The notes beneath the pieces are model-generated. The model saw only the letters and a program-made list of their open reading frames with translations, ran no database searches and was not told where the DNA came from. The translations under genes were made by a program, and so were the position numbers. From an uncultured Candidatus Binatia bacterium (lineage in GTDB: Bacteria; Desulfobacterota; Binatia; Bin18): a stretch of 64,000 bases of DNA. This document shows, one piece after another, positions 11,262 through 44,604 of this stretch. The DNA lies in assembly GCA_965242605.1 (NCBI GenBank), contig CBDESS010000004.1, positions 96,139-160,138 of the forward strand, written 5' to 3'. Each line of letters opens with the position of its first letter. Within the stretch, counting starts at the first letter, position 1.

Positions 11262-12911
11262 ATGACGCCGCCTGTCCGCCACGTCCCAACCCGACCCTTT
11301 TCCGACCAACGGCCCGGTACCTCGGGCCTGCGCAAAAAAACGCGGGTGTTTACCCAAGCTCACTATGTGGAAAACTTCGTCCAGGCGGTCTTCAACACCC
11401 TCCAGGACGACGCCCCACTTGACCTCAGCGATGAGAGTCTAGCCGTTGGTGGCGACGGACGCTACTACAACCGCCAAGCCATCCAGCGGATTATCCGCAT
11501 GGCAGTCGCCCACGGCTTCAGGCGCGTGTTGGTCGGCCGGGACGGCCTGCTGTCCACCCCGGCCATGTCCGCGGTCATCCGCCGCCACCATCTCTTGGGC
11601 GGGCTGATTCTGAGTGCCAGCCACAACCCGGGCGGCCCCCAGGCCGACTTTGGTATCAAGTATAATATGCGCAACGGCGGCCCCGCCCCCGAGCGCGTCA
11701 CCCAGCGGATCTACGCCCACAGCCTGCGGCTGTCTTCGTACCGGACCGTCGAGTGGCCGGACATTGACCTGGAGCGGGAAGGTCCAAACCACATCGGTCC
11801 AACCGAGGTCCGGGTTATTGACCCGCTCGCCGACTATACCGCCCTCATGCAGGCCGTGTTTGACTTCGAGGCCCTACGAGCACTCTTCCAGACCGGTTTT
11901 CGGCTGCGGTTTGATGCCATGCACGGGGCGGCCGGGCCATACGCCCGGCATATTTTTGAGGACTGCCTTGGAGCACCCCAGGCCAGCCTGCTCCGCGCCA
12001 CCCCGCTTGAAGACTTTGGCGGCATCCACCCCGACCCCAATCTGGTCCACGCCGCGGGGCTGGTATCCGAGCTGTCAGCGCCCGACGGGCCGGACTTTGG
12101 CGCGGCCTGCGACGGCGACGGTGACCGCAACCTCATCCTGGGCCGGGGCTGTTTTGTCAGCCCCGGCGATTCGGTGGCGATTCTTGCCGAACACGCAGCC
12201 GACTGCATCCCCGCCTACCGGGCCGGGCTGATCGGTGTGGCCCGCTCCATGCCGACGAGCACCGCGCTCGACCGTGTCGCCCGGGCGCTCGGCATTGCGT
12301 GCTACGAAACTCCGACCGGCTGGAAATTTTTTGGTACCCTGATGGACGCCGGGCTGTGCAGCCTGTGCGGCGAAGAGAGCTTTGGCACCGGCTCAGACCA
12401 CATCCGGGAAAAAGACGGGCTGTGGGCGGTGCTGTGCTGGCTGTCGGTCCTGGCGCAGACAGGAAAATCGGTCGGCCAGATTGTCCACGACCACTGGCAC
12501 CGCTTTGGCCGCAGTTACTACCAGCGCCACGACTTTGAAGGCCTCAACGCCGAGGCCGCGGCCGACGCACTGGCGGCACTCCGCCATACCCTGCCCAGCC
12601 TAGTCGGCCGCCGGCTGGCCGGCAGCCCTGTCCGCCTAGCCGACGACTTCAGCTACACCGACCCGGTTGACCACAGCGTAAGCCGCCACCAGGGCGTGCG
12701 CATCGGCTTGGCCGACGGCTCGCGTCTGGTGTGTCGCCTATCCGGGACCGGGACGGACACGGCCACGCTACGGGTCTACGCCGAGCGGTACACTGCCCAG
12801 CCCACAGGCGAGCCCCCCGAGACCGTACTGCGGCCGCTGGTGCAGGCCGCAGTCGCCCTGCTCGGGCTGCCCCGGCGCTGCGGGGTCAATACCGCCAGCG
12901 TGATTACCTGA
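11262..12911 (+). CDS. pgm: phosphoglucomutase (alpha-D-glucose phosphate-specific)
   Basis: TSGLRKK..., catalytic SASHNPGGP loop, 549 aa. Confidence 0.9.
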   Translation: MTPPVRHVPTRPFSDQRPGTSGLRKKTRVFTQAHYVENFVQAVFNTLQDDAPLDLSDESLAVGGDGRYYNRQAIQRIIRMAVAHGFRRVLVGRDGLLSTPAMSAVIRRHHLLGGLILSASHNPGGPQADFGIKYNMRNGGPAPERVTQRIYAHSLRLSSYRTVEWPDIDLEREGPNHIGPTEVRVIDPLADYTALMQAVFDFEALRALFQTGFRLRFDAMHGAAGPYARHIFEDCLGAPQASLLRATPLEDFGGIHPDPNLVHAAGLVSELSAPDGPDFGAACDGDGDRNLILGRGCFVSPGDSVAILAEHAADCIPAYRAGLIGVARSMPTSTALDRVARALGIACYETPTGWKFFGTLMDAGLCSLCGEESFGTGSDHIREKDGLWAVLCWLSVLAQTGKSVGQIVHDHWHRFGRSYYQRHDFEGLNAEAAADALAALRHTLPSLVGRRLAGSPVRLADDFSYTDPVDHSVSRHQGVRIGLADGSRLVCRLSGTGTDTATLRVYAERYTAQPTGEPPETVLRPLVQAAVALLGLPRRCGVNTASVIT

Positions 12912-19486: not shown

Positions 19487-19565
19487 CAAGGTACAGCTCA
19501 CAGGAAGCCTATCTGACTAGTGGACTACAGACCGCAGGCCCATAGTCCGTTGAACGGAGCATACG

Positions 19566-20828
19566 GTGTTGGCAGAGAAAGAAGAGCGGAGCGGGGTGGA
19601 TGAGTGGCCCAAGATGCGGTTCAGTGACGCGGTTCTGATCAGTCCGCTGGTCCGTCTCGAACGCGGAAGACCCTACCCATTTGTCAATATGGCCGCCGTG
19701 AACGCAGGTTCCCGGTGTGCATACGCGCTTGAGCGACATGCCTATTCAGGCGGCGGGACACGCTTTCGGAGTGGCGACACACTCATGGCGTGGCTCACGC
19801 CTTGCCTGGAGAATGGCAAGATCGCCCGCTACTGCGCGCCTCATTCATCGGACACCGCGCACGGCTCAACGGAGTTCATCGTCATTCGAGGCCGCCCTAA
19901 CGTTACGGACACCGGGTTCGCCTATTACCTGACGCAATGGGAAGAGGTGCGTAATTACGCTATTGGCCAGATGACCGGCACCTCTGGACGCCAGAGAGTC
20001 CAGACGAAATCCCTGGACCATCTTACGGTCACAATCCCGCCCCCCCCCGAGCAGCGCGCCATTGCCCACCTCCTGGGCACGCTCGACGACAAGATTGACC
20101 TCAACCGCCGCATCAACGCCACCCTGGAAGCAATGGCTCGGGGGCTGTTCATCTCCTGGTTCGTCCACTTTGACCCCGTCCATGCCAAAGCCAGCCTGAA
20201 ACAACGCACGTCTCAAGGGGCGGGTGCTTGGCCGGTGGCACGGGCACGGGCCTATCTAGACCGGCTGGAGCCGGAGATTGCCGCCTTATTCCCGGATCGT
20301 TTTGTGGACTCGGAGTTGGGGCCGATTCCCGCCGGGTGGGCGGTCAAGCCGCTTGGCGATCTCATCGAACTCGCTTACGACAAAGCACTCAAGGCGGACA
20401 CCATTGTAGGTCGCAAGGGGAATCCCGGAACAGTCCCCTGGGCTGCCAGTGCGTACTTTCCCATTGACACGACATTTTATGTTGTTCCCAAGGATTCGGG
20501 AACGCCAAGCCTGCCCTTTCTGTTCTACGCCTTGCAAGGGCAAGGGCTGCCGGCCGTTGCTGCGGACTCGGCGGTGCCTGGCCTGAACCGAAACTTGGCC
20601 TCCCTCAACCAACAGGTGACGCCCCCGGCCCCTCTTGTTGCCCACTTTGGCGCACAGGTAGAGCGCTTCTTTGCACGCCGGCATGGCTTGGAGGAGGAGA
20701 GCTGCACCCTCGCCGCCCTCCGCGATACCTTTCTGCCCAAGCTGGTCTCGGGTAAGCTGCGGATACACTCAGGGTCAAGCGTGGAAAAAATCATGCCCGC
20801 GTTGTCAGACAATGGGAAAGTCGGATGA
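19566..20828 (+). CDS. hsdS: Type I restriction-modification specificity subunit HsdS (orphan, apparently intact)
   Basis: Two target-recognition halves with conserved spacer EQRAIAHLLGTLDDKIDLNRRINATLEAMARGLF and C-terminal ...LPKLVSGKLRI; 420 aa. No adjacent hsdM or hsdR. Confidence 0.8.
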   Translation: MLAEKEERSGVDEWPKMRFSDAVLISPLVRLERGRPYPFVNMAAVNAGSRCAYALERHAYSGGGTRFRSGDTLMAWLTPCLENGKIARYCAPHSSDTAHGSTEFIVIRGRPNVTDTGFAYYLTQWEEVRNYAIGQMTGTSGRQRVQTKSLDHLTVTIPPPPEQRAIAHLLGTLDDKIDLNRRINATLEAMARGLFISWFVHFDPVHAKASLKQRTSQGAGAWPVARARAYLDRLEPEIAALFPDRFVDSELGPIPAGWAVKPLGDLIELAYDKALKADTIVGRKGNPGTVPWAASAYFPIDTTFYVVPKDSGTPSLPFLFYALQGQGLPAVAADSAVPGLNRNLASLNQQVTPPAPLVAHFGAQVERFFARRHGLEEESCTLAALRDTFLPKLVSGKLRIHSGSSVEKIMPALSDNGKVG

Positions 20829-20843
20829 CGAAGAGGAGTAGCT

Positions 20844-22455
20844 ATGAGCATTGATATCGTTCAAGGCACTAGCAGTAAACCTGTGTCCACCGACGCGTTG
20901 GTTAAACTCATGTCGAGTCAGACCGATATAGATGGACAGATGTTCACCGGATACCCGATCATCAGCACAGCGGAAGGGCCTCATCTAATTGACGCTCTCC
21001 TCGTATCCCCTGACAAGGGAATTCTCGTGTTCGATCTCATTGAAGGACCCGATATCGGTGATTACGGATCGAGGCAGGATGATGCGGCCAACAAGCTTGA
21101 AGCTCGACTTAGACCCCATCGTGAACTAATGCGGGGCCGGAATCTCCGTATCCCGATTCATACGGTTTCGTTTGCGCCAGGCACGAGCGAGTTGCCCCAA
21201 GACGGTAGTAGTAGGCATCAAATCGCGAATCGCAGAGATACTCTCATACAAGTACTGGAACGTTTCGAGTGGGAGAATGGAAAGAGAAGTGTTTACAAGG
21301 CTGCTCTGTCTGCACTTGAGAGCATTTCGACGATTCGTAAGACCAAGACAAAACGGACGATCCAGCAAGAAGACTCTAGAGGTGCCAAGCTAAAAAACTT
21401 GGAAGATTCGATTGCCACGCTGGATGCCGAGCAACTGAAGGCGGTTGTCGAAACAGTCGAAGGAGTACAACGCATTCGTGGTCTGGCAGGCTCGGGCAAG
21501 ACCATTGTCTTGGCGCTTAAGGCTGCCTACCTTCATGCTCAACACCCCGAGTGGCGTATGGCCGTCACCTTCAACACACGCTCGCTCAAGGGACAGTTCC
21601 GACGTTTAATCAACAACTTCTCCCTTGAACAGACAGGCCAAGATCCCAATTGGGAGAACCTGCGCATTGTCAACGCCTGGGGGGCTCCAGGTGGCAGCAA
21701 ACGCGATGGCGTTTACTACGAGTTTTGTCGTGTGCACGATATAGAATACTGCGACTTCCAGTCAGCCAGAAGAAAATTTCCACCAGGAAAAGAGTTCTCC
21801 GGAGCCTGTGAACTTGCAGTCAGTCAGGCGCAGGAAGTGAAGCCAGTCTATGATGCGCTCTTAGTAGACGAGGCACAAGATTTTTCACCCGCCTTCCTCC
21901 AACTTTGCTACGCATTGCTAGACAATCACAAAAGATTAGTCTACGCATACGACGAGCTGCAAAATCTTTCTGAAGAATCCCTTCCTTCACCAAATGCCTG
22001 ACGGGGCGTTGATTCATGTGTTTTGACTATGACGGTCGGGACAGCCACCACCGGGAATTAGTACATCCTAAGTCTCACTTAACGCTCGGCCAATACGCGA
22101 ACTGCCGAATCTCCGGTAACGGCCCCAATGACGCCTTTCTGGTTTATCGACTTCATTCTCAGGAACTTCTACTGCACTGCGCATGCTGCCGAGTTTCCTG
22201 CACAGCAGGGTATGTTTATCGAGTCGATACTTCCAACCGAGCGAGGCGTGATTCATGTGGTTGTCCCATATGAGTAGCATGGCTAGTCTGAATGACTCCA
22301 CCGCTACCTTAGCGTTTCCGGGGAGCCTCGCCGGATGTATCGCCCACGGGCTGGGTATCGTCCCCGACACGCTGCTTCCCAAGCTTATTTTCGGAGGTCT
22401 AAGGAAGAGCCCAGATAGAAACGCAGGCCTCATACTTTTGACCTTCACCATTTGA
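20844..22455 (+). pseudogene. nuclease-helicase (NERD/PD-(D/E)xK-like N-domain + DUF2075/SF1 helicase core, Nhi-like), truncated and frameshifted
   Basis: First 385 aa intact (20844..22001): N-terminal IDALLVSPDKGILVFDLIEG nuclease-like motif, Walker A GLAGSGKT, ALLVDEAQDF. ORF stops at 22001 and continues in shifted frames (22016..22273, 22255..22455). Region visibly lower GC than flanks. Confidence 0.55.
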
Positions 22456-22464
22456 TTTCTCCCA

Positions 22465-23043
22465 GTGAACAAGACTGCTCTCATCACCCAAATCCACGCT
22501 ACCCCGCTCATGACAGTCCTGGCCGTCACCGGCGGCGGCGGCCAAGCCGTCGCCGACCTCCTGGCCGTGCCAGGCGCTTCGCGCACAGTCTTGGAAGCCG
22601 TCATCCCCTACAGTCAGGCCGCCCAAAGCGCCTTCCTAGGCGAAACGGTTGATCAGTCGGTTACGGCCGAGGCCGCAGCAGCCCTCGCCCGAGTCGCCTA
22701 TCATCGGGCACTCCGGCTCCGGACGGATGAAACGGTGCCGCTTATCGGTCTAGCCTGCACCGCAGCTCTGGCAACCAACCGGCCAAAGAAGGGCGAGCAT
22801 CGGGCCCATATCGGGGTGTGTGATGCGGAAAGCTCTCGGGTCTGTTCCCTCACCCTGTGCAAGGGCAGCCGCGACCGGAGCGGCGAAGAACAGCTTGTGA
22901 CCGCGCTGTTGCTCTCCACGCTAGCCGAGGCGTGTGGTCTTGAGACTAGACTGGAACTCGGACTGCTGCCCCAGGAGCACCTCGTCATTCAGGATTTTTC
23001 TTTCATCCCGCCAAAAATCGCAAAATTCAGAAACTTCCAATAG
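22465..23043 (+). CDS. CinA C-terminal domain-like protein (divergent)
   Basis: VLAVTGGGGQAVADLLAVPGASRTVLEAVIPYSQAAQSAFLGETV aligns by eye with the CinA-C/PncC ESCTGG...VPGSS...GGVVAYSNeAK core, but ESCTGG is replaced. Confidence 0.4.
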   Translation: MNKTALITQIHATPLMTVLAVTGGGGQAVADLLAVPGASRTVLEAVIPYSQAAQSAFLGETVDQSVTAEAAAALARVAYHRALRLRTDETVPLIGLACTAALATNRPKKGEHRAHIGVCDAESSRVCSLTLCKGSRDRSGEEQLVTALLLSTLAEACGLETRLELGLLPQEHLVIQDFSFIPPKIAKFRNFQ

Positions 23044-26852: not shown

Positions 26853-27437
26853 ATGCACAAGAGTGCGCAGGCTCTCTTGCACCTCCTGGCATATCCGTTT
26901 TCGTCTGCAAGAAGCGCGCACCAAGGAGAGGATATGAGTCTTCATCCTGTACGGCAGGAAATACCTGCCAAAAAGCCCAGCGCCAAGCCGGCAGCCAAGT
27001 CAAGCGGGCCGGCCCCGCAGCCGCCAGCCACCGCTGCCCAGTCAGCCGCGGCGGACAATCCGGCTCACGACGAGGTTCAGGAGGCTGACGTTCTGCCGCC
27101 AGCAACGCCTACTTTTGTGCGCCGGGATTTGACCGCCCCAGACGGCAGCACCCGACCCGGCTGGGAAATGTGGATTGGCGACCACTGCTTTGGTCGGGCC
27201 GACAGCAAAGAACTCCTCCTCGCCAGCTTTGAGCGGCTCCAGAGCCCGCCGAGCAGCTTTCACTGGCGTGAGGTCCGCAACCGTATGCCTCTGCGCGGTC
27301 GGCCCAAGTCGGCAAAGCCGGAATCACCACCGGACAAACCTGCCGCGTCGGCACAAGACTCGTCCGACCCAGCGCCGGCCAAACGCTTAGCAGAGCAAGA
27401 CGGCTTCCAGGAAATCAGCCTGGAAACCCCCACCTAG
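26853..27437 (+). CDS. hypothetical low-complexity (Pro/Ala-rich) protein
   Basis: ORF with PAKKPSAKPAAK repeats and conserved-looking core WEMWIGDHCFGRADSKELLLASFERL; start likely at 26935. Confidence 0.3.
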   Translation: MHKSAQALLHLLAYPFSSARSAHQGEDMSLHPVRQEIPAKKPSAKPAAKSSGPAPQPPATAAQSAAADNPAHDEVQEADVLPPATPTFVRRDLTAPDGSTRPGWEMWIGDHCFGRADSKELLLASFERLQSPPSSFHWREVRNRMPLRGRPKSAKPESPPDKPAASAQDSSDPAPAKRLAEQDGFQEISLETPT

Positions 27438-27521
27438 CCCAGAGGGGCCGCTAATCCCCCGTGCCCCGGTGATGAGCCCACCCGAGTACAAGCCTGAACG
27501 CCCCGCCCGACCGGAGGGCGC

Positions 27522-28331
27522 GTGCCACAAGCTGACACACCCTGGACAAGGCCGAGGCGGCAGAGTAAAGAAGAGGGTGTTTCGGTGACACTATGGAGAC
27601 AGTGCTTTCAGGATTGCGGTCCGCCTTCTGGGGTGCGTGTGGTTGACGCCCTCAGCCGCCTGCTGCCGTGCGAAGGCGTCGGGCTTATTCTGCTCAACCG
27701 CCGCAGCGAACAGGCTGAGCGGATTGCGGTCGGCGGCGGCTTTGCAGTCCCGGCCTCCACGGCTCTGGCCGCCGGCCAAGCCGAGGGCGGCCTGCTGCGC
27801 CAGGTCTGCGACCGGGAGCCGCTGGTGTTGGACACACAAACCTCATCCCAGCCCAAGGCCCTGGGCGACCTCGCCGAGCACAGCTTGCTCATCACGCCGG
27901 TCATGCAGCCAGAGTATCCGCAGCCCTTGGGCTGCCTCCTCGTCGCCGACCACGCCGAGGGGTTCTCTGCCGAGACGGTCGGCCTGCTGACCGCGGTGGC
28001 CCGGCGCACCGCCCTGGCCATTGAAAATGCCCAGCTGTACGATGCGCTTGAAAAAGAGCCCCGGCAGCTGCGGGGGTCTGCTGCATACGGTCATCATCAC
28101 CCAGGAAAAAGAGCGCAAACATCTGGTTGAACAGTGGCACGCTCCCTCAGCAAGAAACTGTTTGGCATCCTCCAGGACTTTCGGCGCAGCCAAGACCTGT
28201 TTCTCCAGCGGGTGCCCGAGGCCGAGGGGCAGATCCACCGCCTGGCAGCCGAAATAGACGGGATAGCGGCCCTTGTGCGCAGCCTGATCGACGAGCTGCG
28301 GCCCGCCAGCCTGGACAATGCAATGATATGA
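27522..28331 (+). pseudogene. GAF-domain sensor histidine kinase, 5' part (GAF + HisKA_3 dimerisation region; frameshifted and interrupted)
   Basis: GAF domain in frame 0 to about 28070; the HisKA_3 H-box region is split over two frames (28021.. and 28134..); reading ends ...LRPASLDN then a premature stop at the insertion edge. Confidence 0.7.
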
Positions 28332-28419
28332 CTTGTTCCAAGTAGAAACGCGGGTCGTTCCAGCGTTCGTCGTCAAGATTTTCAATATCCGGCGGGAAAG
28401 GTTTTTAGGATGGGAGCAT

Positions 28420-28827
28420 TCATACGAATTCTTCGTCGTCCAAACCACTTGGTGAGGCGTTTGCTGGAGAGCGTTGTGTTTCGGTGAAAACGCTGAGGGT
28501 CTTGAAGATTTCACGGATTTGCTTCTGTGCATTATTTCGCGTGGATAATGTGGAAGCATTTCCTACGCGTGCGTCCAACCCTTGGTGGTGTATATGGAAA
28601 CGGCAATGGAGTAAGATGTGATACTGATCTGCGAGTTGGCGGAGAAGGGTCAGGCGTGGGTCTTTCTTCTCAAGGATGCCTGCATCCCTCATCGCATTGC
28701 GAAACCAGCAGTAAATCGTCGTGGGTTTGTATTTCTCAAGGATTGCTGGATGGAAATCGCTGTCTTCAAGTTCTTGCTCAAATGGAAACTCAGCAAAGAC
28801 TTGATGAGCCTTTTTCCATGTCGTCAA
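28420..28827 (-). CDS. hypothetical protein (inside insertion)
   Basis: 135-aa ORF, last of four co-directional ORFs in the AT-rich insert. Confidence 0.2.
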   Translation of the reverse strand: MTTWKKAHQVFAEFPFEQELEDSDFHPAILEKYKPTTIYCWFRNAMRDAGILEKKDPRLTLLRQLADQYHILLHCRFHIHHQGLDARVGNASTLSTRNNAQKQIREIFKTLSVFTETQRSPANASPSGLDDEEFV

Positions 28828-28879
28828 TTTCTGTGATTTTCAATCCAGAAATGTTGGATGCTTTTCGCGCAATCGGCAT

Positions 28880-29170
28880 TTAGGTACTCCGTTGAAGGTC
28901 GCCGTACATCTCATTCCAATTCTGTGTAGGAGCAGTCCACTGGATACGTTCCTGGTCTGTGATTTCAGATTTGGCCACGGAGTTCCAAGTGGGAGTAAAG
29001 CCCATGCGTTCAAGGCAAATGAATTGTCGTACAGTTTCTGCTATGAAGATTGCCATGTTCTGTTTCAAGTTGTTATATGACACAGACAACGCACGAATTT
29101 TGCAGACACGCGCTCCACAGTATGCAATCACATCGGCAGTTCGTTGGGCTTCTGTGTCAATGTTCCACAT
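28880..29170 (-). CDS. hypothetical protein (inside insertion)
   Basis: 96-aa ORF co-directional with 29191..29742; may be a frameshifted continuation of the same gene. Confidence 0.2.
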   Translation of the reverse strand: MWNIDTEAQRTADVIAYCGARVCKIRALSVSYNNLKQNMAIFIAETVRQFICLERMGFTPTWNSVAKSEITDQERIQWTAPTQNWNEMYGDLQRST

Positions 29171-29190
29171 GGCCGCCTTGTTCGCTCTAG

Positions 29191-29742
29191 TTATTCCGTA
29201 TGGAAAAGCTTCATACCTTGAGATGCTTCATCCCAAATGAAGTGAGCAGTTTCTCCAGAACTTGGAAAGTCGGTGATTTGACACCGCGCATGTGGTGGAG
29301 TGTTAGTCAAGAAGTCTTCACCAAAGATCGTGACCCTAAAGCTCCAGCGAGAAACCAAAGTTTGTCCGTCGACAATGAGCGACACCCTATGTTCTCCGTC
29401 GCCAAGGAGATTCCAGTTCCAGAGCGCAAGAAATCCGGTATTACGATTTCCGCATGTAGTTTCGGTATCTGCACGCGACAATCCGGTTGCTTGGATAGGA
29501 ATTTCGGTTTGTGTTTCTTCAAGAAGAAGAGCAATGCGGTCGTACTGCGAAATGTCGCAAATCCATCCGCGAATGTTTCCGATGCCACTTTGGTACGAGC
29601 CTTCGCCGGGTTCTTCAAGAATTCCACGAAGAGGGGCTGATGGAGGATCTTCAGGGTCAGGGTTTTGTGGTGTTGGTGTTGGGGAGGAAATAAACGGGTT
29701 CGGTCGGTGTGGACGAATACCAAAGTTCGGAGCACGACACAT
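29191..29742 (-). CDS. hypothetical protein (inside insertion)
   Basis: 183-aa ORF, same strand as neighbouring insertion ORFs; Pro-rich N-terminal region; no recognised domain. Confidence 0.25.
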   Translation of the reverse strand: MCRAPNFGIRPHRPNPFISSPTPTPQNPDPEDPPSAPLRGILEEPGEGSYQSGIGNIRGWICDISQYDRIALLLEETQTEIPIQATGLSRADTETTCGNRNTGFLALWNWNLLGDGEHRVSLIVDGQTLVSRWSFRVTIFGEDFLTNTPPHARCQITDFPSSGETAHFIWDEASQGMKLFHTE

Positions 29743-29906
29743 GGCAGATATGAGGAGAGCCAGGGATTCTTCCGCTTCGTAGATCAGGCGGCGAGTCAGT
29801 GCATCCTTCCGAATTCCCAGCGATGTAAGGAGCTTTCCGCATGACCCAACTCATAATATGGTCTGTTGCCGTTTTCTACCCATTGCCCTCGATGTCGTCC
29901 TTCGTG

Positions 29907-30323
29907 TCAGTTTTGGAGAGCTCTTGCAAATCCTGGATGGTGGTGTTGTAGTTTACGGAGGCAGACTTGTCGTCCGGCCTCAACTTCGCTATGGGTATGA
30001 TTTGGATACCCCAATGTGGACAATGCAGTATTCCACCAGAGTTGATCGCCGACTTGGAGGTAATGTTCCCAGGCGATAGTGGAGTTTCTTTCGTTTGGAT
30101 TGAGATGTAATCCAGGGTCGGAAAGCCATCCATGATGCTCGTCATCCAAAGGGGCATTTGCTGGACAGTTTCCGTTGTCGTCAGGAAGGATATTCCTGTT
30201 GCTTCCGCCGTTAGTACATAAAGTATGGCTGTTCGCAAGAGCAGGGAGGAGGGCGAGCATGAGGAGAATGGCTACGAGCATGGTGATCAACAGGATAAGT
30301 TCACGGGATTTGAGCGTGGACAT
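29907..30323 (-). CDS. hypothetical membrane-anchored/secreted protein with prepilin-like hydrophobic N-terminus (inside insertion)
   Basis: MSTLKSRELILLITMLVAILLMLALLPALANS... resembles the N-termini of prepilin-type/DUF1559 proteins; no canonical G-F-T-L-I-E cleavage motif. Confidence 0.3.
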   Translation of the reverse strand: MSTLKSRELILLITMLVAILLMLALLPALANSHTLCTNGGSNRNILPDDNGNCPANAPLDDEHHGWLSDPGLHLNPNERNSTIAWEHYLQVGDQLWWNTALSTLGYPNHTHSEVEAGRQVCLRKLQHHHPGFARALQN

Positions 30324-30554
30324 AATAGTTTTCCTTTCGATTCGTGGGCTTCTGTAAACCGCCGCCCCTCAGGACGGGTCACAATGAAAACGCTCCGAAG
30401 AACGGGGGACACCAGGAGGTTGCATGGTGTTAGGCTGGTTCCTGACAATATTTCACCACACTGTATACGCAGTTGGCAAGGAGATAGTAGCATAAAAGTG
30501 GGGTCGTGGATGGGTTTCTAGAAAGAAAATCAAGAATAAACCCCTACGAAGTCT

Positions 30555-30996
30555 GTGGGTCGTCCTCAGGTCCGAGACAATTTCGGCTTTGTAGCTGCGC
30601 TGCAAGAGTATGCGGACAAGCTGAGCCAGCGGGGCCTGTTTCGGGTCACTGTTCAGGCCGACGACTCGATCTTGCCCCTGCCGTCCGCGGCCACCCTGAC
30701 CCTGTTCCGGGTGACGCAAGAAGCGCTCGATAGCCTCGACAAGCACGCCCATGCTCAACACGTTGAGATCGCCGTCGTCCAGGAACACAACGGGGTGTCG
30801 CTGCGCATCAAAGACGACGGTCAAGGTACCTACCTCGATCAGCGTTCACACGGTCAGTACAGCCTGCTCTATATGCGGCGAGCGGGTCAAAGCGTGTGGA
30901 GGCACCTTGCAGGTCTCAGGCGCGCGTGGGCACGACAAGAGGTCCGGGTCAGCGTGCCGATTGCCTGACCGCGAGCCCCCGAAGGAGTGCGTATGA
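30555..30996 (+). pseudogene. sensor histidine kinase, 3' part (HATPase_c domain; frameshifted)
   Basis: DNFGFVAALQEYADKL...TLFRVTQEALDSLDKHAHAQHVEIAVVQ...LRIKDDGQG in one frame; the G2-box-like ...GGTLQVSGARG is in a +1 frame (30751..30996). Confidence 0.65.
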
Positions 30997-32123
30997 AATT
31001 TCACCTGTTTATCTATGCGACGCTCGGCCGCCGCCACGAACTTGAAGCCGGCTTGGCCGGCAAGCGGCCGGAACTCTACCAGCGTATGCTGGACGAAGTG
31101 GCCGAGTACGTCAGCTTTGCCGACGAGGCCGGCTATGCCGGCTTCAGCCACCCCGAACACCACCTCCAGATTGAGGGCTTTGAGGCCAGCAACGAACCCG
31201 GCCTGCTGTCGATGTGGATAGGCCAACACAGCCGGCGGCTCCAGGTCAACATGATCGGCTGGGTAGCCCCGACCCACAACCCGGTCCGCACCGCGGAGTA
31301 CATCGCTACCCTGGACCATATGCTCAAAGGCCGCCTAGGCGTTGGCCTCGTCCGGGGCTACCAGGCCCGCTGGGTCCACACTTACCGGATTCGGCCCGAC
31401 CTCAACGCGGTCGGCGACTGGAACCGCAACAGCCCCGACGACGCCATAAACCGTGAGTATTTCACCGAGTTTGTCGAGATTGTACTCAAAGCCTGGCAGC
31501 ACGACACCTTCAGCTACCAGGGCAAATACTGGACCATCCCGCCCGACGACTTTATCAATCCCCACCCCCAAGCGTCGTACACCGAGTACGGCCAAGGGGT
31601 TGATGCCGACATGCGGATTCGAGAGATCGGCATCGCCCCCAAACCCTACCAGCAGCCTCACCCGCCGCTGTACGGCGGCTTCACCCACAGCCTGCGGACA
31701 GCGCTGTTCTGGGCCAAGTACGGCGGCAAGCCGATTGTGCTGGCCTCGGACCTCGATTTCTGCCAACGCCTGTGGTCGGGCTACCGCGACGAAGTCCTCA
31801 AACACGGGCGGACTATCGAGCCGGGCGAGGAGGCGGCCTGGGGCGGCATGCTAATCTGCCACAAAGACCGGGCAGTCGCCCAGGACTGGCTCGCAGACCC
31901 GCTGTGGATGTGGGACAAGTGGTTTGTGCCCTTCGGCCAGGGCCACCCCGAGCTGCTCGTCGGCGACCCGGACGCCCTGTGCCGGCGGCTGGAAGAGGCC
32001 AGCGCCAAGATCCCGATCAAAGAATGTTTTTTCCTGCTGCCGCAGGGCATTCATGACCGCGACCAGATCATGAGCTCGCTCGAACTCTTCGCCGAGAAAG
32101 TCATGCCCCGGTTTGCTGACTGA
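30993..32123 (+). CDS. LLM-class flavin-dependent oxidoreductase (luciferase-like monooxygenase)
   Basis: RBS GAAGGAG then ATG 30993; luciferase-like TIM-barrel motifs; 376 aa. Confidence 0.8.
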   Translation: MKFHLFIYATLGRRHELEAGLAGKRPELYQRMLDEVAEYVSFADEAGYAGFSHPEHHLQIEGFEASNEPGLLSMWIGQHSRRLQVNMIGWVAPTHNPVRTAEYIATLDHMLKGRLGVGLVRGYQARWVHTYRIRPDLNAVGDWNRNSPDDAINREYFTEFVEIVLKAWQHDTFSYQGKYWTIPPDDFINPHPQASYTEYGQGVDADMRIREIGIAPKPYQQPHPPLYGGFTHSLRTALFWAKYGGKPIVLASDLDFCQRLWSGYRDEVLKHGRTIEPGEEAAWGGMLICHKDRAVAQDWLADPLWMWDKWFVPFGQGHPELLVGDPDALCRRLEEASAKIPIKECFFLLPQGIHDRDQIMSSLELFAEKVMPRFAD

Positions 32124-32146
32124 GCCGGCCGCCTGCCGGCCTCGGC

Positions 32147-35100
32147 TCAGCTCGCCCAGCCGGCAGACAACACCTCGGCCTGCTCCAGCACGGTCCGGGT
32201 TGCCCGCTCCTGCTTGTCGGGTGAGTAGCCGTGCTTGCGCAGGGTGCGTTTGACCAGCCGGCGCAGATTCTCCCGCACATGCTCGCGCAGCGTCCAGTCG
32301 ATTGTTACGGCGTTGCGTACAGTTTCCACCAACTCACGCGCGATGCTACGCAGGGTCTCATCGCCCAGTACCCGCACCGCGCTGTCGTTGGTCTCCAGCG
32401 CGCCGTAAAAAGCCAACTCGTCGTCCGACAGCCCCAGCGCCTCGCCCCGGGTACACGCCTCCCGCCGCTCACGCGCGAGCTGGATCAACTCCTCAATCAC
32501 CTGCGCGGCCTCAATCACCCGGTTCTGATAGGCAGCGTGTCTTCCAGCATTGCGGCGAACGACCGTGCCTGGACGACGTTTTTGCTGCGACGGGTCGCCA
32601 GCTCGCTCTTGAGCAGCTTGTGCAACAGTTCAACCGCCAAGTTGCGCCGCGGCATATCCCGTACCTCGGCCAGGAACTCGTCTGACAGGCCCGAAATATC
32701 GGGCTTGTCCAGGCCGGCCGCGGCAAAGATGTCGATCACCCCCTCGGACGCCACCGCGTGCGAGATAATCTGGCGCACGGCGTGGTCCAGCCCCTCATGA
32801 TCCAGCTCCTCTTGGGACCGCCCGTCGGCCGGCGCGCGTTTGGCCAGTACCGACCCGACGGCCTGAAAGAAGGCGACATCGTCGCGGATGCGCAGCGCGT
32901 CTTCGTGCGGCACAGCCAGGGCGAAGGCTTGGGACAGTTCACGGACCGCCCCCACGCAGCGCTCCTTGCCCTTGTCCTGGGCCAGGATGTGTTCCTGGGC
33001 GGCCGGCAGCAGACCTAGCCGCTCTGCGGGCGGGCCGGTGGTCCAGCCGGAGCGGGCCAGGCCGTGGAACAGGCCGCAGCAGACTTCGTACTTCTCCTGC
33101 ATGGCCGCTACGGCCTCGTTCTGGTTGAGCGCAGTCTGTCCCGTGCCGCCGCTCTCGGTGTAGGTGGCCAGCGCGCGCTTGAGTTCAGGGGCGAGGTCCA
33201 GGTCATTGACGACGAGGCCACCCGGTTTGTCCTTGAACACCCGGTTGGCCCGGGCAATCGCCTGCATCAGCGCGTGGCCGCGCATCGGCTTGGCGAGGTA
33301 CATGGTGTGCAGGCTCGGCGCGTCAAAGCCGGTCAGCCACATGTCGCGCACCAGCACCATGCGGAGCGGGTCGTCGGCGTCGCGGAAGCGGCTGGCCAGG
33401 GTCTCGCGCCGGGCTTTGGTGCGGATATGCGGCTGCCAGTCGGGCGGGTCGGACGCCGCCCCGGTCATCACTACCTTGAGCCTGCCCTTGGCGTCGTCTT
33501 CGTCATGCCAATCGGGACGCAGGGCCACCAGCCGGCGATAGAGGTTGATGCAGACGCGCCGGCTCATGCCCACCACCATTGCCTTGCCCTCCAGCGCTTC
33601 AAGCCGGACCTCAAAATGGCTGATAATGTCCTGGGCAATGAGGGCTAGGCGCGTGTCAGCCCCGACGACCGCTTCGAGCTGCGCCCATCTGGTTTTGAGT
33701 TTTTCCTTGACCACGCTCTCCTGGCCCTCGGTCACTTCTTCAAAGGCAGGGTCGATTCTGGGCCGTTGGCTCTCGTTCAGATTGAGCTTGGCCAGCCGGC
33801 TCTCGTAATAGATCGGGACGGTGGCCCGGTCCTCAACCGCGCGCTGGATGTCGTAGACGCTGATGTAGTCGCCAAATACCGCCCGCGTGTTGGCGTCCCG
33901 GCATTCTATCGGCGTGCCGGTAAAGCCGATAAACGAGGCCCGGGGCAGAGTCTCGCGCATATGGCGCGCATAGTCGTCGATAAAGTCGTACTGGCTGCGG
34001 TGCGCCTCGTCGGCAATAACCACGATATTGCGCCGCTCCGACAGCAGGGGGTGGCGGTCGCCCTTCTCTTGGGGAAAGAACTTCTGAATTGTGCTGAACA
34101 CCACCCCGCCCGATGCTGTCGCCAGCCGGTCCCGCAGGTCGGCCCGGCTCTCGGCCTGGACCGGCGGCTGGCGCAGCAGCTCCCGGCAGCGGGCAAAGGT
34201 GGCGAAGAGCCGATCGTCAAGATCGTTGCGGTCGGTCAGCACCCAGCAGCGTCGGGTTGTGCATGGCCGGCTCACGGATGACCCGCCCGGCATAGAACGC
34301 CATGGTCAGGCTTTTGCCGGCACCCTGGGTATGCCACACTACGCCGATACGCCGGTCGCCCGTTCTCCCGCCGGGCCGGCGGCCAGACGTATAGCCCCGG
34401 CTGCCCTCGCTGACCGCCTCTCCCTGCATTTCGGCCGCCCGCAGGGTTTCGGCAAGCGCTGTCTCGACCGCGTGAAACTGGTGGTAGCCGGCCATTTTCT
34501 TGACCAGCCGGCCGCTGCCGTCGTCCTCAAAGACGATGAAGTCGCGCACTAGACTGAGGAAGCGCTTAGGCGTGCAGACGCCGGCCAGCAGGACGTGCAG
34601 TTCGGGCAGGTGCGGGTCGGCCAGGGTTTCGCCCGGGATTGTGCGTCAGGGCTTGAACCACTCCCGCCCCGCGGTCAGGGTGCCAATACGCGCTGTCAGA
34701 CCGTCAGACGCGATCAGCACCGCGTTCAGGCTGAACAGCCCTGGCAGTTCGGCTTTATAGGTCTGCAACTGCTGCCAAGCCGTCCAGGATGGTAGCATCC
34801 TTGTCGGTCGGATTCTTGAGTTCGATGAGGCCGAGCGGCAGGCCGTTGGCGAACAGCACCAAGTCGGGCCGGCGCTCGTGCTTGTTCTCGACCGCGGTGA
34901 ACTGGTTGACCGACAGCCAGTCGTTATTCGCTGGCTCGTCATAATCAAGCACCCGGGCCGGCGCGCCCCGGATATCGCCGTCAGCGGCCCGGTACTCGAC
35001 CGCCGCTCCGTCCACCAGCATACGGTGGAAGGGACGGTTGCGGGTTTCCAGCGTTGGTCCTTGCGGGCGGGTCAGCGTGCGGTAGGCGTCGTCCAGCACC

Positions 35101-35302
35101 TCGGCAGGCAGCTCCGGGTTGAGACGGGTCAGGGCATCGCGCAGACGCCTTTCCAGCACGACTTGGCCATAGTCCACGCGCTCTGCGGCCGGCGTATCGG
35201 CGCAATGTCCGGCCCATGGGCTACGCCCCAGCCCTGGCCGGCCAGCCAGTCAAGGGCGGCGGCTTCAACGGTGGATTCGGTCACTCTGGGCATGGATGAC
35301 AT
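32147..35302 (-). pseudogene. hsdR: Type I restriction enzyme R subunit HsdR, multiply frameshifted
   Basis: N-term [20 protein letters not shown]... (ATG 35302); helicase motifs ...[29 protein letters not shown]; DUF3387 C-terminus 32147..32518. Spread over at least 5 ORF fragments in different frames (35177-34755, 34549-34217, 34293-32515, 32518-32147); 1-bp deletion visible at 32518. Confidence 0.8.
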
Positions 35303-35351
35303 GATGGGGTGAGCGGGGCGAAGGCGGCAGCTTCAACATCGGTGCAGACGC

Positions 35352-36779
<1,428 letters not shown>

Positions 36780-41749: not shown

Positions 41750-42768
41750 AGCGCTTCCTCTCAGCCCTTCCGCTCTCTCTCCTGTATGTGTCGGTCTGCA
41801 CTGCCCAGCCCACCACCAAGCCGATTCGCTTTGGCCTCCAGGTCGCTCAGCAGCAGACCACCGTCCAGGAGCTCAAACAGGTCTGGCAGGAGGCCGAGGC
41901 GCTCGGCTTTGACAGCCTGTGGACCAACGACCACCTGCTGCCCAGTGTAGGCCCCCCGGACAAAGTCAACCTCGAGGCCTGGACCCTGCTGGCGGCAATG
42001 GCAACCGTCACCTCCCGGGTCCAGCTCGGCACCCTGGTATCGAGCAATACATTTCGGCATCCCTCGGTCCTGGCCAAGATGGCGACCACGGTTGACCACC
42101 TGAGCAACGGGCGGCTCATTCTGGGGCTCGGCTTTGGCTGGTTTGAGCGGGAACACCGGGCTTTTGGCGTGCCCTTCCCCAAGATGAAAGAACGCAGCGA
42201 TCGGCTGGCCGAAGCCCTGCAACTCATCATCGCACTGTGGGGGGCCAATCCAACCGCGTCTTTCAGCGGCACATATTACAGCCTGCTCAATGTTCCGTTC
42301 GAGCCCAAGCCGGTCCAGCAGCCCCACCCTCCGATTCTGATCGGCGGCATTGGCGAAAAACGCACCCTGCCGCTAATAGCCAAATACGCCAGCATGTGGA
42401 ACATTCCAATGCTGACCCCAGACCAGATCCGGGCAAAAAACCAGGTCTTAGAACGGCTGTGCCAAGAGATACAACGGGATTGCGACGAGATTGAGCGCTC
42501 AATCCTCACCCCGGTCTATATCCGAACCGACCCGGCCGAGGTCCAAAGCCTGCTCGAACGTATTGCCGGTCTAAGAAACATTCCCGTTGAACAGGCCCGC
42601 AAGATGATACTAGCCGGCACGCCAGAGGAAATCCGTGGCCAGCTCAAGGCGTATATTGAGGTGGGCGTAAGCCATTTTATTATCAATCTGCGCCGTCCGG
42701 GTCTGTACGACAGGGATGGGGTGCGGACGTTTGCCACAGAAGTCATACCTCACCTGAAAAAGAACTAG
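41746..42768 (+). CDS. LLM-class F420-dependent oxidoreductase (luciferase-like)
   Basis: ATGA overlap with bioB; ...FGLQVAQQQTTVQELKQVWQEAEALGFDSLWTNDHL... resembles F420-dependent LLM subfamily. Confidence 0.7.
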   Translation: MKRFLSALPLSLLYVSVCTAQPTTKPIRFGLQVAQQQTTVQELKQVWQEAEALGFDSLWTNDHLLPSVGPPDKVNLEAWTLLAAMATVTSRVQLGTLVSSNTFRHPSVLAKMATTVDHLSNGRLILGLGFGWFEREHRAFGVPFPKMKERSDRLAEALQLIIALWGANPTASFSGTYYSLLNVPFEPKPVQQPHPPILIGGIGEKRTLPLIAKYASMWNIPMLTPDQIRAKNQVLERLCQEIQRDCDEIERSILTPVYIRTDPAEVQSLLERIAGLRNIPVEQARKMILAGTPEEIRGQLKAYIEVGVSHFIINLRRPGLYDRDGVRTFATEVIPHLKKN

Positions 42769-42991
42769 CCGAGCTCTGCCTTCTCCAACCAGAGCAAGCC
42801 GCAAAGAATCCGGATGGTAAGGCAAGGTGGAGAAAAGCCATATTTTCCATATCTTTCCCACCGCCGGCATGAGGCCAAGCGCCTTTTTCACATCTGAACG
42901 ACTGGAATCAGCGCGGCTCTTCTCTGAGAGAGCGAGAGTGTGCTATGGTCTGGAGATAGCCTACACCGTGCCCAGATAAGGAGGATAGACC

Positions 42992-43441
42992 ATGCCGATC
43001 AAGGTTGTTGAACTGCACCACCACGGGATTCGGATTGGCACCGAACCGGAGGAAGTCGAACAGGCGCGTCGCTTCTACTCCGACGTACTCGGTCTCAATA
43101 CCGACCCGGCTCGGCCCACTATCCCCACCATTCCTGGTTTCTGGATGTATGTGGGCCAGGGAGAACGGACAACCCAGATTCATCTGATGGGGGCCAGGGG
43201 CAAATCGCCCATGGTCAAAAGCGAAAAAGAAGACCCGACCCTGCCGCATGTCGCCCGGGCCGTTGAAGACATTCAAGAGCCCCGTAAGGAGTTGGACGAA
43301 CGCGGCATCTGGTACTGGAGCATCCAGGGCTTAGTCGGCCAGAACTCCGATCAGGTGTTTGTCCACGACCCGTGCGGCAATGTGATTGAGTTGCACCAAG
43401 TCGGCACCTGCACATGTAACAAGCTCGCCCTCAGTCAGTAG
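42992..43441 (+). CDS. VOC-family protein (glyoxalase/bleomycin-resistance/dioxygenase fold)
   Basis: ...LHHHGIRIGTEPEEVEQARRFYSDVLGL...; 149 aa. Confidence 0.7.
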   Translation: MPIKVVELHHHGIRIGTEPEEVEQARRFYSDVLGLNTDPARPTIPTIPGFWMYVGQGERTTQIHLMGARGKSPMVKSEKEDPTLPHVARAVEDIQEPRKELDERGIWYWSIQGLVGQNSDQVFVHDPCGNVIELHQVGTCTCNKLALSQ

Positions 43442-43479
43442 CACAACGACCGCGCGTCCCTATTTTTTCAGGAGGCCCA

Positions 43480-44604
43480 ATGACCGCAGAATACACCCAA
43501 CGCTTATTGTCTTCCGACTCCCACATTGTCGAACCCGCCGACCTGTGGCTGACCCGTATGGATAAAAAGTGGCGGGACAAAGCCCCGCGTATTGAGGCGC
43601 TGGACGAAACCGGCGACTACATCGTTATCGACGGGCTGCGCCCGCGTCCGCTGGCCTTTGAGGGCCCAATGGCCGACCTCAAGGCCCAAGGGCTGGATAT
43701 CCCCAAACCAAAGGGGTTCAAGTACGCAGAGAACCGGCCCGGCTGCTGGGACCCGGACGAGCGGCTGAAGGACCAAGACTTAGACGGCGTGTCTGGCGAG
43801 GTCGTCTACCCAGGGATCGGCCTGACCCTGGTGCGGGCACCCGAGGCCGAGTATTTGTACGCCTGCTGCCGGGCCTACAACGACTGGCTGGCCGAGTTCT
43901 GCCAGCCCTACCCCGACCGTTTGAAGGGCGTGGGCATGATCCCGTGTCGGGGACCGATTGAGTGGGCGGTTGAAGAAACCGAGCGGTGCGCCAAACTCGG
44001 ACTGGTCAGCGTGATGCTACCGGCCTGGGTTGACGATCGCCCGTATAACCTGCCCGACTGGGAGCCGCTGTGGGCAGCCATGCAGGACATGGGGCTGATC
44101 GCCAGCATCCACATCGGCGGCCGTGACCCTTTTGGCCGCGCCCACGGCCCGGGCGCGGGTGGGATTATCATCGGCATCGTCAAGTTTGAGATGAACGACA
44201 CTTTGCAGCACCTGATCTGGGGCGGCGCGCCAGTCCGGTTTCCCAAGCTCAAGTGGGCCTTGGTGGAGAGCGGTATTGGCTGGATCGGGGCCGCCCTCGG
44301 CTTCATGGATCACTGGTGGCAGGACCACAAGGGCTGGATGGACCCCCGGCTGCCCGAACCGCCCAGCACCTATTTTCATCGTCAGTTCTACGCCACCTTT
44401 GAGGACGACCGGGCCGGCGTCCTGACCCGCGAGCTGATGGGCGTGGAGAATATCATGTGGGGCTCAGACTATCCGCATACCGAGGGCGTATGGCCGTTCT
44501 CGCGCAAACAGGTGGCCCAGAACTTCACCTCAATTCCAGACGCCGACACCCGCAAGATTGTCCACGACAACACGGCCAGGCTGTACGGTTTTCCGATGGA
44601 GTAG
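43480..44604 (+). CDS. amidohydrolase-2 family metal-dependent hydrolase (ACMSD-like)
   Basis: ...SDSHIVEP...DLW... N-terminal metal-binding motif and TIM-barrel hydrolase core; 374 aa. Confidence 0.75.
   Translation: MTAEYTQRLLSSDSHIVEPADLWLTRMDKKWRDKAPRIEALDETGDYIVIDGLRPRPLAFEGPMADLKAQGLDIPKPKGFKYAENRPGCWDPDERLKDQDLDGVSGEVVYPGIGLTLVRAPEAEYLYACCRAYNDWLAEFCQPYPDRLKGVGMIPCRGPIEWAVEETERCAKLGLVSVMLPAWVDDRPYNLPDWEPLWAAMQDMGLIASIHIGGRDPFGRAHGPGAGGIIIGIVKFEMNDTLQHLIWGGAPVRFPKLKWALVESGIGWIGAALGFMDHWWQDHKGWMDPRLPEPPSTYFHRQFYATFEDDRAGVLTRELMGVENIMWGSDYPHTEGVWPFSRKQVAQNFTSIPDADTRKIVHDNTARLYGFPME

Follow-up and report, generated by a model that had tools for sequence, protein, structure and literature searches.

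A 2,256-bp low-GC insertion flanked by a 6-bp direct repeat in a decaying sensor kinase gene of an uncultured Binatia bacterium

Target duplications of 4 to 9 bp characterize insertion sequence (IS) families such as the IS481 and IS1634 types (ISfinder family traits), and non-autonomous DDE transposons and elements resembling miniature inverted-repeat transposable elements (MITEs) combine a short target duplication with the lack of an internal transposase. Here, we describe a 2,256-bp insert that interrupts a sensor kinase gene in a 64-kb stretch of an uncultured Candidatus Binatia genome (contig CBDESS010000004.1), referred to below as the window, whose numbering is used throughout unless a relative is named. 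The insert shares both features with MITEs and other IS derivatives, but it has no terminal inverted repeats (TIRs), no further copies and no autonomous partner, and at 2.26 kb it is longer than typical MITEs.

Two other kinds of described DNA bear comparison with this locus. Cis-mobilizable elements (CIMEs) retain attL and attR and have lost their genes for integration and transfer (ICEberg 2.0, PMC6323972). The insert is similar in its flanking direct repeat, its lack of a recombinase, its content of passenger genes only and a possibly arm-like motif, GGGTCGT, that occurs three times. However, its repeat is only 6 bp, far below the usual att identities of elements moved by tyrosine recombinases, it sits mid-gene in a kinase and not at a conserved attB site, inverted core-type sites are absent, no partner integrative and conjugative or integrative and mobilizable element is found, and no integrase is encoded in the insert or among the neighbouring genes as annotated in relatives. 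Small horizontally acquired islets, which arise by illegitimate recombination, resemble the insert in atypical GC content, absence of mobility genes, single copy number, a repeat of a few base pairs and a dispensable location. Compared with these, the perfect 6-bp duplication, with no target bases lost, is cleaner than in most, and we infer the mechanism in the present case. The interrupted gene itself resembles HisKA_3-type (NarX/DegS-like) sensor kinases with a GAF domain, having the same GAF domain, HisKA_3 helix and HATPase_c domain as these, and its orthologue is a membrane kinase of 524 amino acids (aa); in contrast to these kinases, the copy in the window is a pseudogene with a deleted 5' end and four frameshifts, split by the insert.

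Insertion point, empty site, and decay of the kinase

The kinase is spread over three plus-strand open reading frames (ORFs), for which Pfam places GAF_2 in 27522..28130 (E=1.1e-8), a weak HisKA_3 match in 28134..28331 and HATPase_c in 30555..30968. The second ORF ends in ...DELRPASLDNAMI*, with its stop three codons past ...DELRPASLDN, and the kinase reading is picked up again at 30576, within the third ORF, as DNFGFVAALQEY.... Copies of the hexamer GACAAT at 28314..28319 and 30576..30581 bound the intervening DNA (28320..30575), which has a GC content of 48.7% compared with 64.0% and 65.0% in the 5-kb flanks. An initial annotation, made from the letters of this DNA alone, had already proposed that the kinase is split by an AT-rich insertion with GACAAT on both sides, and the sequence and the orthologue alignment bear this out, with the split between 28319 and 30576. 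Its GC estimate was about 45% for the insert against about 65% for the flanks.

Relatives were found through the neighbouring MoaC protein, the 90% cluster of which has members on several megabase contigs that were then fetched. They fall into a sister clade with 88 to 91% nucleotide identity to the window (L004-L011) and a more distant clade with 82 to 87% identity (L013-L017). In the more distant clade, the kinase is intact at 524 aa, with a membrane N-terminus followed by the GAF, HisKA_3 and HATPase_c domains, and it lies directly upstream of the same luciferase-like (LLM) gene as in the window. When the window is aligned to one of these relatives (L016) by BLAST, positions 27639-28319 correspond to L016 13504-14202 and positions 30576-32000 to L016 14197-15652, so the two segments overlap on the orthologue by exactly 6 bp. 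At the target, this orthologue reads ...CGGCCCGCCACCCTG-GACGAT-TTTGGCTTTGTG..., with one hexamer, and at the protein level the intact orthologues of the clade read ...LRPATLD|DFGFVAALQEY. With the insert removed, the corresponding empty site of the window would read ...CTGGACAATTTCGGC....

Because the intact orthologues of L013-L017 carry one hexamer at exactly this point, and the inserted DNA is absent from them, the 2,256-bp block is a true lineage-specific and derived insertion into a once-contiguous kinase gene. The initial annotation had proposed such an insertion and suggested a BLASTN search for an intact kinase with a single copy of the hexamer; that state is found in L013-L017, with GACGAT in place of GACAAT, and these orthologues are contiguous where a natural long AT-rich linker might have been expected under the opposite view. 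A match of a foreign end to the target at six of six positions would arise by chance about 1 time in 2,000, and the repeat is therefore beyond chance. The sister clade L004-L011 was considered as an empty site and is unusable, since the target region has been deleted there independently. Within the insert, GACAAT is present in four copies; an enrichment of the hexamer was dismissed, since 41 hexamers reach the same frequency. An 11-mer that spans the left junction, TGGACAATGCA (28312-28322), is found again at 30017-30027, within the first ORF of the insert, which may be chance.

The kinase has suffered several lesions besides the insertion. Relative to L016, a 5' deletion of about 0.6 kb has removed the start codon, the first 163 codons and the membrane-spanning N-terminus. 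Window positions 27540-27644 align with L016 12806-12910, non-coding DNA that precedes the orthologue's start codon (13015) by 105 to 209 bp, and the first aligned base past the deletion, window position 27639, corresponds to L016 13504, in codon 164. The BLAST segment boundary places the deletion junction at 27639..27644 (plus strand), and the alignment identifies 27522..27644 (plus strand) as former non-coding upstream DNA that now forms a spurious N-terminus of the ORF at 27522..28130. What remains is a 5' pseudogene fragment (27645..28319, plus strand), which carries the GAF domain and the HisKA_3 helix up to ...LRPASLDN and has 82% nucleotide identity to L016 13504-14202, and a 3' fragment with HATPase_c (30582..30968, plus strand), delimited by Pfam and by alignment to L016 and L005. 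All three domains are present, but no single intact ORF unites them.

Further frameshifts had been noted in the initial annotation, and four are found in comparison with the intact L016 gene: +1 at about 28072 (in a G-run), -1 at about 28145, +1 at about 30877 and -1 at about 30938, the last two of which lie in the 3' fragment. The GAF domain has also lost 12 bp at 27836 and 6 bp at 27953 in frame. These frameshifts are real and not sequencing noise because indels in the neighbouring intact genes keep the reading frame; relative to L005, they add up to multiples of three over short distances, and the LLM gene has none. Between the window and L016, dN/dS (the ratio of nonsynonymous to synonymous substitution rates) is 0.27 for the kinase and 0.08 for the neighbouring LLM gene.

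The sister clade has lost the kinase by a different lesion. In L004-L011, the DNA upstream of the gene and ~120 bp at the start of its coding region are kept, and the ~1.2 kb corresponding to L016 13137-14358, which includes the insertion target, are missing. The lesion lies at approximately 11370-11595 (for example, within L005 11269-11840), and an in-frame HATPase_c tail remains, which in L005 and L007 is still annotated as a gene of 167 aa. Two genes found upstream of the kinase in L013-L017 are absent from both the window clade and L004-L011. On these alignments, the kinase was inactivated twice independently, in the window lineage and in the sister clade, which suggests that selection on it had relaxed before the two clades split.

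Ends, copy number, and gene content of the insert

The insert begins with GCAATGATATG... and ends with ...GGTCGTCCTCAGGTCCGA, which gives ...GGTCCGA-GACAAT-GCAATGATATG... as the junction of a hypothetical circle. The lack of TIRs reported in the initial annotation is confirmed by end alignment and by a repeat search: a local alignment of the two ends scores below the shuffle mean, and the best inverted match that the 66-nt ends share, 5 nt, likewise falls short of the average for shuffles. Sub-terminal repeats at the ends do not exceed those in shuffles, the repeat search shows no terminal pair, and hairpins at the ends fold no better than shuffles (z -0.2 to -0.8). Read from the sequence, the reconstructed attP (..CAGGTCCGA GACAAT GCAATGATA..) has no dyad around the hexamer, and attB has only a 4-bp AGCC/GGCT symmetry. 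Searches of the insert ORFs against Pfam, NCBIfam, PHROGs and PADLOC detected no transposase, integrase, reverse transcriptase (RT), recombinase or Rep protein, again as first reported. According to the relatives' Pfam annotation, there is also no integrase or transposase among the genes common to the window and its relatives within 10 kb on either side. An Rfam scan of 27000-31500 at E<=1 returned no intron or RNA family, only a meaningless small nucleolar RNA match.

Other element classes were considered and rejected. Against IS families that lack TIRs (IS200/IS605, IS91/ISCR and IS110) stand the absence of an HUH or DEDD transposase, the all-helical model of the fourth ORF and the presence of a 6-bp duplication. 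Integron cassette features are missing, since no attC-like fold is detected and the junctions lack GTT; the gaps between the ORFs are 21 to 53 bp. A group II intron does not fit an insert with no Rfam match at that threshold, ends GCAAUG and UCGGAC instead of a 5' GUGYG, and no RT. The heptamer GGGTCGT occurs three times on one strand (30501, 30557 and 28352), only in the non-coding ends of the insert, and would be spaced at 56 and 57 nt if the ends were joined through one GACAAT. The chance that any 7-mer occurs three times in the 358 bp of non-coding ends is 2.6%, and as a post hoc observation this is weak.

The 64-kb window and the 95 loci that were fetched contain no other copy of the insert. 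Its ends, queried as exact 22- to 25-mers, gave 0 matches in JGI metagenomes and IMG/VR, and plasmids and phages contain no match at blastn sensitivity. In these searches, no part of the insert has a second copy except the domain family of its second ORF.

The genes of the insert all lie on the minus strand. Reading in that direction, a non-coding 5' head (30324..30575), with GGGTCGT at 30501 and 30557 and no sigma-70-like promoter match, is followed by ORF1 (29907..30323; 138 aa), which has a signal-peptide-like N-terminus and a Cys-containing region. A gap (29743..29906) with at least one stop and one frame change, as seen in three-frame translation, separates it from ORF2 (29191..29742; 183 aa), which combines a Pro-rich linker with a C-terminal beta-sandwich domain and has no signal peptide of its own. 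The orphans ORF3 (28880..29170; 96 aa) and ORF4 (28420..28827; 135 aa) come next, and a non-coding 3' tail (28320..28419), with one GGGTCGT at 28352 and no significant hairpin (fold z -0.2 to -0.3), completes the insert.

None of the four ORFs has a meaningful match in Pfam, NCBIfam, PHROGs or PADLOC, and neither ORF1 nor ORF4 has a homologue among 5.8 billion clusters. ORF4 also lacks a sequence match in the PDB, and its low-confidence AlphaFold2 model (pLDDT, the predicted local distance difference test score, of 66) is helical with no fold match, on which grounds a Rep protein or transposase of the HUH (HIHH) type was rejected; its GC1>GC2 pattern is compatible with coding. The sole matches to ORF3, obtained in an exhaustive HMMER search, are weak ones to repetitive leucine-rich-repeat and sushi proteins, and these were judged spurious because their scores are sums of ~10-bit repeats. 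The 90% clusters of ORF2 and ORF3 have one member on one contig each.

ORF2 is the only ORF of the insert with homologues, namely, eight proteins of 204 to 302 aa with 37 to 46% identity. We scanned for its domain family with a degenerate pattern in one genome per GTDB species and confirmed the hits by tblastn, which yielded 233 confirmed stretches in GTDB representative genomes (E down to 6e-37). Of the 77 distinct loci kept, 76 come from Binatia, with many per genome, and the other is from a Thermodesulfobacteriota metagenome-assembled genome; IMG/VR contains no matches to the family. The domain usually forms a tandem pair at the C-terminus of proteins of 800 to 1,200 aa with fn3, cadherin, Calx-beta or PPC domains. 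Alternatively, a single copy follows a signal peptide, a passenger region that varies and a linker rich in Gly/Ser or Pro. The ~140-aa C-terminal beta-sandwich domain seen in these loci (among L019-L095, for example, L036 476-9299 and L074 5056-8302) has no Pfam or NCBIfam model and is marked by SFQSGIG.ISGW.C, NWNLLGDGEH, VTTLG.EF and W.E..QNF. This immunoglobulin (Ig)/fn3-like domain of the ORF2 type may be a lineage-specific sorting or anchoring domain.

ORF2 itself carries the family motifs SxQSGIGxIxGW..C, NWNLLGDGxH, VTxxGxxF and DxPxxG...WxExxQ, with all 36 invariant columns present. This retention, together with the unameliorated GC content of the insert, speaks against the initial proposal that the insertion is old, which had been drawn from the frameshifts of the kinase. 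Those frameshifts date the decay of the kinase and not the insert, which may have arrived before or after the other lesions. Low-GC family members are found inside Binatia genomes of otherwise 60 to 65% GC (L074 6437-8302), and the donor of the insert therefore need not lie outside the class.

The closest homologues of ORF2 (P0002-P0005, from L001-L003 and L019) belong to related populations; their C-terminal ~150 aa are identical and their N-terminal regions differ. Their genes lie where GC content is slightly reduced, and small orphan ORFs come after them. Rapid N-terminal turnover is suggested for the family. No synteny was found between ORF3 or ORF4 and the genes downstream of these closest homologues.

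The end of ORF1 lies 164 bp upstream of ORF2 in a different frame. Because ORF2 lacks a signal peptide, ORF1 supplies one and the layout fits that of the family, ORF1 and ORF2 were probably a single ancestral gene for a secreted protein, now broken, with a signal peptide, a passenger region, a Pro-rich linker and the C-terminal domain. The four co-directional minus-strand ORFs of the initial annotation are present, but they are better read as this broken gene plus two orphans. Its description of the ORF1 N-terminus as prepilin- or DUF1559-like did not hold, since no N-methyl/prepilin match is found in Pfam or NCBIfam at E<=1 and the G|FTLIE motif is absent. The N-terminus reads ...KS RELILL..., with no G|F(T/S)LIE site for cleavage and methylation, and by its sequence it appears to be a generic signal peptide or transmembrane helix.

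Origin of the insert

The best reading of this locus, to which we assign a probability of roughly 0.55, is that accessory DNA was integrated once, by an illegitimate event, into a gene that was dispensable. A low-GC accessory segment would have entered, in a single lineage-specific event, a kinase that was already, or soon became, dispensable, and would have left the GACAAT repeat behind. The fragment may have been captured at a double-strand break with staggered ends, the 6-nt overhangs of which were then filled in, or a circularised fragment may have undergone a single crossover with the chromosome at 6 bp of identity; the two routes give the same structure and are not separable from sequence alone. 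This reading is supported by the empty site, the decay of the kinase, the lack of end structure and mobility genes, the single copy in the searches made and the low-GC family members within Binatia. It is also supported by the main cargo of the insert, which is not a mobility gene, as ORF2 encodes an Ig/fn3-like C-terminal domain.

Four considerations weigh against a one-off event. A clean 6-bp duplication classically marks the action of a transposase or integrase and not that of random end joining. The insert begins and ends in DNA that appears to be non-coding, which leaves ORF1 and ORF4 complete; this would be expected more of a discrete unit than of a fragment taken at random, with the reservation that ORF3 and ORF4 are possibly not real genes. 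The three GGGTCGT motifs at 56/57-nt spacing hint at a once-circular, organised region. Finally, "single copy" applies to the window, the fetched loci and the databases searched; the rest of the host genome was outside the search, and copies there are possible.

Much of this would be explained by a non-autonomous element with defined ends, either a TIR-less transposon or a CIME-like module that has lost its recombinase, moved in trans through a 6-bp stagger or overlap by a transposase or tyrosine recombinase encoded elsewhere. Such an element would account for a precise insertion bounded by an exact direct repeat of 6 bp and for ends in non-coding DNA, the three terminal same-strand heptamers recall arm-type sites, and CIMEs are a recognised class that keeps attL and attR without integration genes (PMC6323972). 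We nevertheless regard this explanation as rather unlikely. Only the ORF2 domain family recurs outside the insert, the TIRs are missing, attP has no dyad and attB no more than AGCC/GGCT, the target is mid-gene and neither a tRNA nor a gene end, the relatives' annotation of the common neighbouring genes includes no recombinase, and the main cargo gene (ORF1+ORF2) is itself broken. The label "novel non-autonomous element" given in the initial annotation is not retained, as the insert is single copy in everything searchable and its ends have no recognisable structure. A specific form of this idea, in which the insert would be the first copy seen of a TIR-less, recombinase-less Binatia integrative module with a 2,262-bp circle, a GACAAT core, arm-like GGGTCGT motifs and a low-specificity recombinase acting in trans, is a long shot; if true, it could contribute to the spread of the secreted-protein family that is so strongly expanded in Binatia. 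It is similarly improbable that the insert is what remains of a once larger, autonomous element (an IS, transposon, integrative element or small plasmid) whose mobility gene was lost by internal deletion. Although the duplication is intact, the cargo has decayed (ORF1 and ORF2 split, ORF3 and ORF4 orphans) and the lineage shows deletions of 0.6 to 1.2 kb in non-essential DNA, both original ends should outlast an internal deletion, yet no TIRs or other end structure remain, family searches of the ORFs show no fragment of a transposase, integrase or Rep protein in any frame, and no related element was found anywhere searched. An assembly chimera, in which a low-GC block was misjoined into the contig, might be suspected from the abrupt change in composition of a metagenome-assembled contig. 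This is very improbable, since both flanks come from one gene, whose reading continues past the insert at the very codon where it broke off and with 6 bp duplicated, whereas assemblers need long shared k-mers or read overlaps, and the indels of the window respect the frames of intact genes, which indicates good sequence quality. The notion that the AT-rich block is natural to the gene, for example a long linker, intron or intein-like segment, might draw on the length of the insert with one repeat copy (2,262 bp, a multiple of 3), but it is refuted by the intact orthologues, which are contiguous at the insertion point. Three-frame translation also shows that every plus-strand frame contains stops, models of group I and group II introns give no match, and the kinase is disrupted elsewhere.

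The favoured one-off integration makes this event one of an ordinary class, the gain of a short orphan stretch of DNA by a gene in decay, and its clean 6-bp duplication, with no TIRs, is a small oddity. The locus nonetheless offers a reconstruction of how, in a lineage without cultured members, a gene decayed and DNA was gained, with an ancestral state, an empty site, inactivations in two sister clades and a precise foreign insertion, and it illustrates that a Binatia chromosome can take up DNA that lacks any mobility gene, with 6 bp duplicated at the site of entry. Further junctions of this kind, if found, would indicate a route of integration that has gone unrecognised. From what is seen so far, the insertion has no functional consequence past confirming that the kinase is dispensable, and the uncharacterised C-terminal domain carried by hundreds of Binatia surface proteins may be of wider use than the insertion itself.

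Neighbouring loci in the window

A second lower-GC island (19491-22465; down to ~51% GC) is present in the window and absent from L004-L011. It contains a solitary type I specificity (HsdS) gene at 19566-20828 and a truncated defence helicase at 20844-22001 that matches positions 2-379 of the 707-position PADLOC model PDLC03002. The intergenic site occupied by this island is a defence-gene hotspot, because L014 carries an HsdS gene and a SIR2_2 gene at the same site.

Downstream of the kinase, a type I restriction-modification system (32100-36344) is decayed. Compared with L005, its HsdR gene is shifted out of frame by indels at 34242, 34787 and 35199, with a largest ORF of 592 aa versus 1,076 aa, and the N6_Mtase ORF is 248 aa long compared with 546 aa in relatives. 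A further stretch of lowered GC content (~56%) lies at 42000-43500.

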